Source: Escherichia coli (GTDB lineage Bacteria; Pseudomonadota; Gammaproteobacteria; Enterobacterales; Enterobacteriaceae). From it: 64,000 nt of DNA. Where the stretch lies: NCBI RefSeq assembly GCF_017348835.2, contig NZ_CP071375.1. One strand, 5' to 3'. Below the pieces are notes generated by a model. That model saw only the letters and a program-made list of their open reading frames with translations, was not told where the DNA came from and did not search any database. This document shows, piece after piece, positions 46,938 to 48,803 of this stretch (position 1 is the first letter of the stretch; each line of letters opens with the position of its first letter). The position numbers were made by a program, and so were the translations under genes.

Positions 46938-47306
46938 TTAGCCTGGACGCACTCTTTTTTGATCGCGTTTAGCCAGACCATCAACCACCAGATTCCACGA
47001 ATCGTTGATCAGATCGCGAAGTAACGCTTCGGAGATTTCCTCGCCGGGATACACCGAAATCCAGTGCTTTTTATTCATGTGATACCCTGGCTTAATGCTT
47101 GGGTATATTTGCTGATTTAACAGGGATTTTTGTGGATCGGACTTCAGATTGATAAAGGGGACGCCGCGTAGCTCCGACGACAGCATAAAAATCTTGCCGC
47201 CAATTTTAAAAACATCGAACTCCGGGCCAAAAGGCCAGCAAAGCTCGACAAAGGGTAACTCAAGGGCCAGGCGTTTCGCCGTTTCGTGCAGTGATTGCTT
47301 ATCCAT
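46938..47306 (-). CDS. ybdF: YbdF, uncharacterised protein
   Basis: 122 aa from [13 protein letters not shown]. Confidence 0.85.
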
Positions 47307-47370
47307 AAACGTTCCTTTAGGCGAAGGAGAATAAGCAAAGTATGCCGCGAAGTACGGCGATAATCGACGT

Positions 47371-47619
47371 TTAATCCGCCAGCGAGAACCAGCGTCGCCA
47401 GATAAAGCGCAGAACAAAATACTCAATAGCGCCCAGCACTAAAAACCACAGACAAAACAATAAAGTGTAAAGCTGACTAAGATCCATCAGATGGAACGTG
47501 GTCACCAGTTTTTGTGCCAGCGTCAGCCCCAGTGCGGGGGCGGGCAGCAGCAGGCAAGAGAGGAAAGCCATCAGCAAAATGCCTGCTGCGGTGGTCAAGG
47601 TTTCTAAAGGGTGTTTCAT
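47371..47619 (-). CDS. ybdJ: YbdJ, small inner membrane protein
   Basis: 82 aa with two hydrophobic segments. Confidence 0.85.
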
Positions 47620-47684
47620 AACATTGTTAAATGTAAGTTAAAACACCATTGTCAGGGATATTCTTCTGTAAGGCAATTCCCGGC

Positions 47685-48803
47685 TTAGTCACCGGCCCAG
47701 ATCTCACAATGCTTTTTCACCAGCCCAATCAGCGAGCCGCCATCGGCGACGAAATCGCGCATCAGCTGCGCTTCATTCAGACCGCTGACGACCTGGCGAT
47801 GCAGTGCTTCAATTGCGCTCGATGCGCCAATTTTATGTGCGGAAGGGGCGATTTTTTCCAGCAATCGCAAGGTGTCTTCCGTTAGCGGTCGACGATCGCC
47901 GGTGTGCGGATCGGTAATGACGCCTTCCAGCCCATAGCGGCAGGCCTGGAAACGGTTGAATTTATACAGCAGGTAATCTTTCTCCTTATGTTTGAACGGG
48001 CGTTCTGTCAGTAACCAGTGGGCGGTGGCCTGAATTAATCCCGCCATATTTACCGCGTGGCTAAGGGTTAACGGGGTATCCATCACCCGAACCTCCACCG
48101 TGCCAAAATGAGGACTGGGGCGAATATCCCAGTGCAGATCTTTAATGCTGTCGATCATCGTGGTGTAACTCAGGCAGCGAAACAGGGCTTCAAATTGTTG
48201 CCAGTTACTGACCCACGGCATCGGGCCATTATCAGGAAAGGCGGAAAAAATATTCGGTCGTGAGGAGGCAAAACGCGTATCCGTTCCCTGCATATATGGC
48301 GACGCGGCGGAAAGGGCGATAAAGTGCGGCACAAACCGTGACAAGCCGTGCAGCAAATAAATGGCGTCATCGCCACTGGCACAGCCAACATGGACATGCT
48401 GACCAAAAACGGTCGCCTGCTGGATGAGATAGCCAAAGTTTTCCAGCGTTCGTTGATAGCGTTCGTTGTCGCATACCTCCTGACGCTGCCATTTCTGAAA
48501 CGGGTGCGTGCCACCGCCGCAAATTTCCAGATGATGGTCTGCGGCTGCCTGCAATACGACTTTCTGCATCGCTGAAAATTGCCCGGCAGCCTGGTTGATA
48601 TCACGACAAACGCCAGTCGCCAGCTCCAGCATACTTTCGGTGATATCGTGCTTTACCTCTCCGGCCGTGATCTTATTTTTAACCGCGTCAATCAGCATTG
48701 AAGAGTCCTGGCTTAAGTCATAGCCCGGCGGATTAACCACCTGCATTTCCAGTTCAATACCGAGGGTAAAAGGTTCAGAAACATGAAAATCGGGTAATGG
48801 CAT
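47685..48803 (-). CDS. ybdK: YbdK, carboxylate-amine ligase (weak gamma-glutamyl-cysteine ligase)
   Basis: 372 aa beginning [21 protein letters not shown]. Confidence 0.93.

Follow-up and report, generated by a model that had tools for sequence, protein, structure and literature searches.

In Escherichia coli K-12, the genes ybdK, ybdJ, ybdF, nfsB, and mscM form an operon with a primary transcript that spans all five genes (Conway et al., 2014, mBio; PMC4161252). The same study describes a stationary-phase-induced unit specific to ybdK and an nfsB-mscM unit that is transcribed from a secondary promoter and inversely regulated. A second system for comparison is the ram locus of Klebsiella, Enterobacter, Citrobacter, and Salmonella, which lies between flanks that are also found in E. 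coli, where ybdJ flanks ramA and ybdF-nfsB flanks ramR. Here, we analyzed a 64,000-nucleotide stretch of an E. coli genome (contig NZ_CP071375.1; hereafter "the window"), in which ybdK, ybdJ, and ybdF follow one another on the minus strand at 46938-48803. The window resembles the K-12 operon in genes, order, strand, and spacing. It differs from the ram locus in that ramA, romA, and ramR are absent, and ybdF thus lacks its ancestral promoter and its translational coupling. We consider it probable that ybdK, ybdJ, and ybdF are functional genes which arose separately, are regulated separately, and do not form a pathway, and that they are neighbors in Escherichia through the absence of the ram block. 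The individual genes, their families, the structure of YbdK, and the five-gene operon are already documented in the literature and in databases.

An initial annotation of this DNA had described three consecutive minus-strand genes of 372, 82, and 122 amino acids between nfsB and the hok locus, and both the open reading frames and the annotation agree with this description. The genes of the operon and the junction that is central to our analysis are as follows:

47685..48803, minus strand: ybdK, 372 amino acids, GCS2/YbdK-family ATP-dependent carboxylate-amine ligase
47371..47619, minus strand: ybdJ, 82 amino acids, DUF1158 inner-membrane protein with two transmembrane helices
47307..47370, minus strand: ybdJ-ybdF junction, 64 bp, Escherichia-specific; the position of ramA-romA-ramR in other Enterobacteriaceae
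46938..47306, minus strand: ybdF, 122 amino acids, YjbR/MmcQ family (PF04237)
46191..46844, minus strand: nfsB, 217 amino acids, ATG at 46844, nitroreductase, conserved downstream partner of ybdF
44836..46083, minus strand: ybdG/mscM, last gene of the five-gene operon reported for K-12

The intergenic gaps measure 65 bp between ybdK and ybdJ, 64 bp between ybdJ and ybdF, and 93 bp between ybdF and nfsB. The annotated ATG of ybdF is located at 47306, and the mechanically called open reading frame extends further upstream. The three genes are flanked by nfsB and ybdG downstream and by hokE/sok, entD, and fepA upstream.

Gene order at ybdJ loci of the Enterobacteriaceae

Using YbdJ, the narrowest family, one locus per species was retrieved from 100,044 species genomes. 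A YbdJ relative was found in 116 species; the best 80 loci, all from core Enterobacteriaceae, were kept (the other 36 species were not retrieved), and genes were located in these loci by tblastn of the E. coli proteins. The co-occurrence of the three genes across genomes, which the initial annotation had named as a check, does not appear in this set: the tight ybdK-ybdJ-ybdF order was found in 5 of the 80 species loci, all of Escherichia type. Adjacency of ybdJ and ybdF (64-65 bp) is seen in six loci, again all Escherichia-type, and elsewhere the two genes are separated by 2245-6302 bp. A further 51 loci have ramA-romA-ramR between the two genes, which places ybdF 2.2-6.3 kb downstream of ybdJ, and ramA is present in 58 of the 80 loci. 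NCBIfam and Pfam models identified the genes of this block as ramA (NF012144, 227 bits vs 180), romA (MBL-fold hydrolase), and ramR (TetR regulator). The general order is ybdJ(+) ... ramA(-) romA(-) ramR(+) ybdF(+) nfsB(+), sometimes preceded by ybdK and sometimes followed by ybdG.

Within this order, 44 of 47 loci have a gap of -11 to +1 bp between ramR and ybdF, so that the stop codon of ramR overlaps or abuts the start codon of ybdF. Such an overlap had already been noted in Klebsiella (PMC3117140). In these genera, the last codons of ramR contain the ribosome-binding site of ybdF, whereas ybdF in Escherichia has its own AAGGA site. Downstream, the adjacency of ybdF and nfsB is nearly universal; it was seen in 51 loci, with a gap of 57-311 bp and a median of 119 bp. 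The position of ybdK is more variable: it adjoins ybdJ (61-89 bp) in 27 loci, lies elsewhere in the locus in 17, and is represented by a fragment only in 10, nine of which have it at the locus edge ~7.5 kb away and one as a truncated copy ~2.7 kb away. In 25 further loci, including those of Klebsiella, Raoultella, and Kluyvera, ybdK was not found within 8 kb of ybdJ. The E. albertii locus (L044, upstream of ybdJ at 8001) shows a deletion of ybdK that left only the last ~15 nt (GGAGACTAAGCCGGG). This locus retains ybdJ-ybdF together with the ybdJ promoter motif, and hokE lies ~1.1 kb upstream of ybdJ.

Comparison of the window with locus L091 shows flanks, fepA-entD on one side and ybdG-pheP on the other, that are collinear with E. 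coli, the difference being essentially the ram block. No ram remnant was detected in the window, where tblastn of RamA, RomA, and RamR gave chance matches only (E > 0.6), and alignment of the 64-bp junction to the ybdJ-ramA spacer and to the 3' end of ramR of other genera revealed no homology. We propose that the ancestor of Escherichia, Citrobacter, Klebsiella, and Enterobacter would have carried ybdK, ybdJ, convergent ramA-romA, and divergent ramR-ybdF-nfsB, sometimes followed by ybdG. Escherichia would then have come to be without ramA-romA-ramR, most parsimoniously by deletion, leaving ybdJ 64 bp from ybdF.

Several loci deviate from the general order in other ways. In Superficieibacter electus, Pseudescherichia vulneris, and an Enterobacteriaceae metagenome-assembled genome (L056, L076, and L079), ramR is followed directly by nfsB (88-146 bp) and ybdF is missing; L076 and L079 are also without romA. 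The ybdK-ybdJ and ybdJ-ramA junctions are insertion hot spots (L008, 554-7500; L066, 7861-11781; L047, 3965-7490). The insertions comprise genes for an AcrB-type resistance-nodulation-division (RND) pump, a membrane-fusion protein, and a P-type ATPase in Enterobacter-like genomes, and an enterochelin-esterase-like gene and a TonB-dependent receptor gene in K. oxytoca and Raoultella. Locus L004 (PYVH01000101.1), labeled Marinobacter sp. B9-2, carries E. coli-type DNA (99-100% protein identity) at the ybdJ locus, and L009 (CACSKA010000002.1), labeled Chryseobacterium sp. 18061, has Enterobacter-type DNA there; both contigs are probably contaminants or mislabeled.

Promoter motifs and transcription of the individual genes

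A single shared promoter, as implied by treating the three genes as one unit, is at odds with the non-coding sequence, in which ybdK, ybdJ, and nfsB each appear to have a separately conserved promoter motif. The relevant elements are:

48834..48840, minus strand: CTATACT, predicted sigma-S-type -10 element of ybdK, 30 nt before the ATG; no conserved -35
47620..47684, minus strand: ybdK-ybdJ spacer, 65 bp, with predicted -35 TTGCCT (47671-47676) and -10 GACAAT (47648-47653); leader without Shine-Dalgarno sequence
47626..47641, plus strand: direct repeat GTTAA-N6-GTTAA (TTAAC-N6-TTAAC on the gene strand) in the ybdJ leader, between the predicted -10 and the ATG
46845..46937, minus strand: ybdF-nfsB spacer, with a conserved nfsB promoter block at ~46880-46926
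46903-46908 and 46880-46885: putative nfsB promoter, -35 TTACCA and -10 TAATCT, overlapping a divergent marbox

CTATACT corresponds to the classic sigma-S type of -10 element. Regardless of which gene lies upstream, 36 of 44 species loci have it no more than 64 nt from the ybdK ATG, and 41 of them have TATA[AC]T there; the background for CTATACT is 0.0025 per random window. In published data, systematic evolution of ligands by exponential enrichment (SELEX) with the RpoS holoenzyme yielded a peak at ybdK (PMC5493296), and upon entry to stationary phase of an O157:H7 strain the ybdK transcript changed by +2.98 log2 and that of ybdG by -2.36 log2 (PMC2241611). The conservation of the motif, combined with the stationary-phase induction and the SELEX signal from these papers, suggests that the ybdK promoter is of the sigma-S type. 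The correlated expression of a common unit is not what these studies report either, as the ybdK transcript rises and that of nfsB-mscM falls at the entry to stationary phase (PMC4161252, PMC2241611).

A motif of the form TTGNNN-17-GACAAT precedes ybdJ in 71 of 79 species loci, be the upstream gene ybdK, a P-type ATPase gene, or ramA (background 0.0017), and we infer that it acts as a sigma-70-like promoter. The direct repeat of the ybdJ leader occurs only once in the 64-kb window (0.06 expected) and is kept in 58 of 79 species loci, against a background of 0.002. Its 11-bp geometry is that of the sites bound by OmpR/PhoB-type response regulators (ArcA, PhoP, PmrA). Alternatively, given that ybdJ has no Shine-Dalgarno sequence, the repeat could play a translational role. 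Further downstream, non-coding alignment showed the ybdF-nfsB spacer to be conserved across genera. It corresponds to the promoter of nfsB (synonym nfnB) for which direct activation has been reported, by RamA in Klebsiella and by MarA acting through a divergent class II marbox (PMC4310594 and its reference 56). Our scan with the marbox consensus was uninformative, returning 98 matches vs 123 expected.

In a consensus scan, we found no terminator-like sites between the three genes or before nfsB, and the ybdK-ybdJ spacer contains no hairpin with a U-run. The spacers are no more structured than shuffled sequences, with z-scores of 0.71 (ybdK-ybdJ), -0.22 (ybdJ-ybdF), and -0.14 for the third. Since the spacers contain no terminator-like hairpin, read-through is expected, which agrees with the five-gene primary transcript of K-12. 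In E. coli, the genes share one strand and short gaps with no intergenic terminator, and their co-transcription is known from the literature. The reading of the three genes as a unit therefore holds insofar as they are co-transcribed in E. coli (PMC4161252), but they are part of a larger, internally differentiated five-gene operon. The published account of the K-12 operon differs from ours in that it describes no ybdJ promoter.

We propose that ybdK would be a stationary-phase gene under the sigma-S-type promoter CTATACT, with a product that may have weak gamma-Glu-Cys ligase activity, and that ybdJ would be transcribed from its own conserved sigma-70-like promoter, with a leader devoid of a Shine-Dalgarno sequence. 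ybdF, which in other genera would be the translationally coupled second cistron after ramR, would have lost that promoter in E. coli; with no terminators in the way, transcription from the ybdK and ybdJ promoters would read through into it. Among the three genes it would thus be the only one without an ancestral promoter of its own, and in E. coli it would have to depend on upstream promoters. Finally, nfsB-ybdG would retain their own MarA/SoxS/Rob-responsive promoter. The outcome would be the complex five-gene operon seen by RNA-seq.

Alternative explanations for the gene arrangement

The co-orientation of the three genes, the 64-65 bp gaps with no terminators, and the primary transcript that spans all of them in K-12 are what one would expect if YbdK, YbdJ, and YbdF formed one functional module, for example a thiol/redox stress unit. 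The weak gamma-Glu-Cys ligase activity reported for YbdK (Lehmann 2004) and the presence of the redox enzyme NfsB as the next gene product point in the same direction. Nevertheless, we regard such a module as highly improbable. Its gene arrangement is confined to 5 of the 80 species loci, and elsewhere ybdF is found with ramR-nfsB; ybdK is missing near ybdJ in 25 loci and deleted in E. albertii; and each gene seems to have its own conserved promoter motif. Moreover, the YbdK family is far broader than DUF1158, and methylglyoxal, an electrophile stress, did not raise the RNA polymerase occupancy of ybdK (PMC3739934). The initial annotation had framed the group as a trio whose role could be sought under thiol or oxidative stress and had named independent promoters, uncorrelated expression, and a lack of co-occurrence as evidence to the contrary; this is largely what was found, and the framing is unsupported. 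YbdK and YbdJ might instead constitute one true pair, with YbdJ serving, for example, as membrane anchor or as exporter or regulator of the ligase product, and YbdF and NfsB another, extended by RamR where it is present. This would account for the adjacency of ybdK and ybdJ (61-89 bp) in 27 loci from Escherichia, Citrobacter, Phytobacter, Kosakonia, Pseudescherichia, and others, for DUF1158 beside a YbdK homolog of 61% identity, and for the ybdF-nfsB adjacency in 51 loci and the ramR-ybdF overlap in 44 of 47. We still hold two such pairs to be unlikely, as ybdJ retains a promoter motif of its own and, in 25 loci, occurs with no ybdK within 8 kb, insertions of 2-7.5 kb split ybdK from ybdJ in Enterobacter, Pseudocitrobacter, and Kosakonia, and more distant YbdK homologs have no small membrane partner. 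As to the second pair, three species have ramR-nfsB without ybdF, and nfsB has its own promoter.

The direction of change at the ybdJ-ybdF junction could also be the reverse of the one that we propose, i.e., the Escherichia order could be ancestral and ramA-romA-ramR inserted in other lineages, with nothing lost in E. coli. The window contains no ram remnant, the 64-bp junction has no homology to either flank in other genera, the ram genes are also absent beside ybdJ in Buttiauxella, Cedecea, and some Kosakonia, and the region is a hot spot for insertions. However, in 44 of 47 loci, which come from many genera, ram is found at one and the same position and with the same overlap of ramR and ybdF. 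Among these genera is Citrobacter, a closer relative of Escherichia than Klebsiella and Enterobacter are. Many identical insertions, each of which would have had to create a translational overlap, are a less parsimonious explanation than a single loss. In addition, the ribosome-binding site of ybdF, which lies inside the ramR coding sequence elsewhere, is in unique sequence in Escherichia. We therefore consider an ancestral Escherichia order to be quite improbable.

Several points weigh against the reading of three separate genes that became neighbors through the absence of the ram block. The promoters are predicted from motifs that score 8/12 and were not reported by a simple promoter scan, and the internal terminator described by Conway et al. 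was not located in the window sequence. Because the K-12 primary transcript covers all three genes, there is some co-expression in E. coli. The adjacency of ybdK and ybdJ, with its 61-89 bp spacer, survives in 27 loci of several genera, and a functional link between these two genes is possible. The 80 loci, one per species, are phylogenetically related, and their counts do not represent independent events. Lastly, the junction bears no scar of the ram block, and loss over gain is argued by parsimony alone. On the reading that we prefer, a search for a shared phenotype of the three genes in E. coli is likely to be unproductive, and it would be more informative to study ybdF together with ramR and nfsB, and ybdK in the context of RpoS and stationary phase.

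Protein families and surroundings of the three genes

Family scores, hydropathy, and an AlphaFold model agree with the initial assignment of YbdK as a carboxylate-amine ligase and of YbdJ as a two-helix membrane protein, and the description of YbdK as the only one of the three with a reported, weak activity, with no role established for the group, holds. YbdK matches PF04107 with 326 bits and the equivalog model NF010040 with 581.6 bits (cut-off 425) over residues 4-370, and it corresponds over its full length to the solved E. coli structure PDB 1R8G (E 3e-259). Its gene shows a ratio of non-synonymous to synonymous substitution rates (dN/dS) of 0.04-0.11. Weak in vitro gamma-Glu-Cys ligase activity was reportedly observed for YbdK by Lehmann et al. 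in 2004. YbdK shares the carboxylate-amine ligase fold and PF04107 with GshA and other GCS2 relatives such as EgtA and gives weak matches to GshA-type models, but it scores below the cut-off of every NCBIfam glutamate-cysteine ligase model, the best being NF010043 with 280.2 bits vs 409. It would also differ from GshA in its expression, which appears to be governed by a sigma-S-type promoter and not to be of the housekeeping kind. YbdK is thus most likely an ATP-dependent carboxylate-amine ligase that is expressed in stationary phase.

YbdK relatives fall into 4407 clusters at 50% identity (452 at E ≤ 1e-30) from many taxa. A homolog with 61% identity still has DUF1158 downstream. Homologs at 38-45% identity have neither DUF1158 nor YjbR neighbors, and the surroundings of distant homologs are heterogeneous (Na/H exchanger, MarR, thioredoxin with GATase_4, RND pump), with no recurrent partner. 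In locus L088 (481-4026), a YbdK homolog of 38% identity is part of an array with thioredoxin, GCS2, a cNMP-binding protein, and GATase_4. This array recalls the logic of egtA/egtC, in which a gamma-glutamyl group is added and later removed.

YbdJ belongs to PF06643 (DUF1158), with 156.5 bits vs a gathering score of 25. The family comprises 617 clusters at 90% identity and is present in 116 species; among the 120 best-scoring clusters, identity to the query is 78% or higher, and all named ones are from Enterobacteriaceae. Hydropathy peaks at residues 14-32 and 52-70 and the AlphaFold model (helices 4-23, 32-41, and 47-79; pLDDT 76) support two predicted membrane helices. Foldseek comparison of this model with the PDB returned no match, and a sequence search of the PDB gave chance matches only. 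Over the 80 species loci, YbdJ is 74-100% identical, with H3, P4, L5, L23-P26, P28, H43, D46, Q49, Y51, T52, C56, W58, F59, G63, E66, and R71 being invariant. H43, D46, Q49, Y51, T52, and E66 are invariant polar residues in or near the membrane helices, and the C-terminus is cationic. We also considered whether YbdJ is a lipoprotein, as FLSC fits a lipobox and the Klebsiella annotation reads "putative lipoprotein," and rejected this since the cysteine is not invariant: V stands in place of C22 in Phytobacter, Kosakonia, and Leclercia, and S in E. albertii. As a strongly conserved small membrane protein that is restricted to Enterobacteriaceae and has a conserved promoter motif and leader repeat, YbdJ is a tractable target for further study.

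In a multidrug-resistant Salmonella mutant, ybdJ was found to be upregulated 33-fold (PMC5681696), and its knock-out and overexpression left minimum inhibitory concentrations unaffected. ybdJ and ramA are convergent in ram-bearing species (L069, 8001-10883; L007; L091; and 55 other loci). Strand-specific RNA-seq in Klebsiella detected a ramR-dependent signal antisense to the gene adjoining ramA, and in a published Klebsiella RNA-seq supplement the antisense reads over this gene are ~68-fold higher in the ramR than in the ramA deletion. Because antisense reads rise in the ramR deletion, it appears that derepressed romA-ramA transcription enters ybdJ. We therefore rejected ybdJ as a RamA-activated gene; the 33-fold rise is probably an artifact of convergent read-through from romA-ramA into ybdJ.

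YbdF is a member of the YjbR/MmcQ family, matching PF04237 with 85.7 bits vs 30.1 and NF007603 with 260.5 vs 183. The product name given by PGAP, the NCBI annotation pipeline, implies DNA binding through a "double wing," and the closest known systems for comparison are the YjbR/MmcQ "double-wing" proteins and the C-terminal domain of T4 MotA. There is a small chance that YbdF is a conserved accessory of the RamR/RamA multidrug-resistance switch. RamR and YbdF would be made together, given that in 44 of 47 species the two genes overlap or abut at the ramR stop and the ybdF start, and as an accessory YbdF could bind DNA or RamR and thereby tune ramA derepression. Alternatively, YbdF could shield DNA from what the co-expressed nitroreductase NfsB produces. 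If YbdF were indeed an accessory of the ram system, clinical ramR frameshifts or deletions would shift the output of YbdF and NfsB through the lost coupling, and ybdF of E. coli would be an orphan that selection still maintains and that has come under stationary-phase read-through. Through the translational coupling of ramR and ybdF, mutations of ramR in clinical Klebsiella, Enterobacter, and Citrobacter may have unnoticed polar effects on ybdF-nfsB. NfsB activates nitrofurans.

Within E. coli, the region is widely conserved. The 3.5 kb around the three genes are 100% identical to E. coli F2_81, the RefSeq annotation of which lists the same genes from nfsB to hokE, and 95-99% identical to more than 5000 complete genomes; the order in K-12 is identical. 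The 1866-bp stretch comprising the three genes was found in 5409 of 5426 complete E. coli genomes, with ~320 of the 5426 (about 6%) containing less than 80% of it in one piece. dN/dS values of 0.02-0.15 over ybdK, ybdJ, and ybdF show purifying selection on all three. In E. coli EC24.26 (L090, NZ_CM186189.1; 5907-6809), IS26 has taken the place of ybdF-ybdJ-ybdK-hokE-entD and abuts fepA. Some strains at least can do without the region, as natural deletions such as this IS26-bounded loss from ybdF to fepA show.

None of YbdK, YbdJ, and YbdF matched a PADLOC defense-system model, and an Rfam search gave no match within the three genes, the only matches nearby being sok and REP-type elements. The hokE/sok locus is situated at 49097-49396 of the window (Rfam sok, 87 bits) and has no adjoining IS186, unlike K-12, in which IS186 lies beside hokE. 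The REP-type matches fall into the entD-fepA interval (50197-50303), with ES036 above threshold at 42 bits and naRNA4 below threshold.

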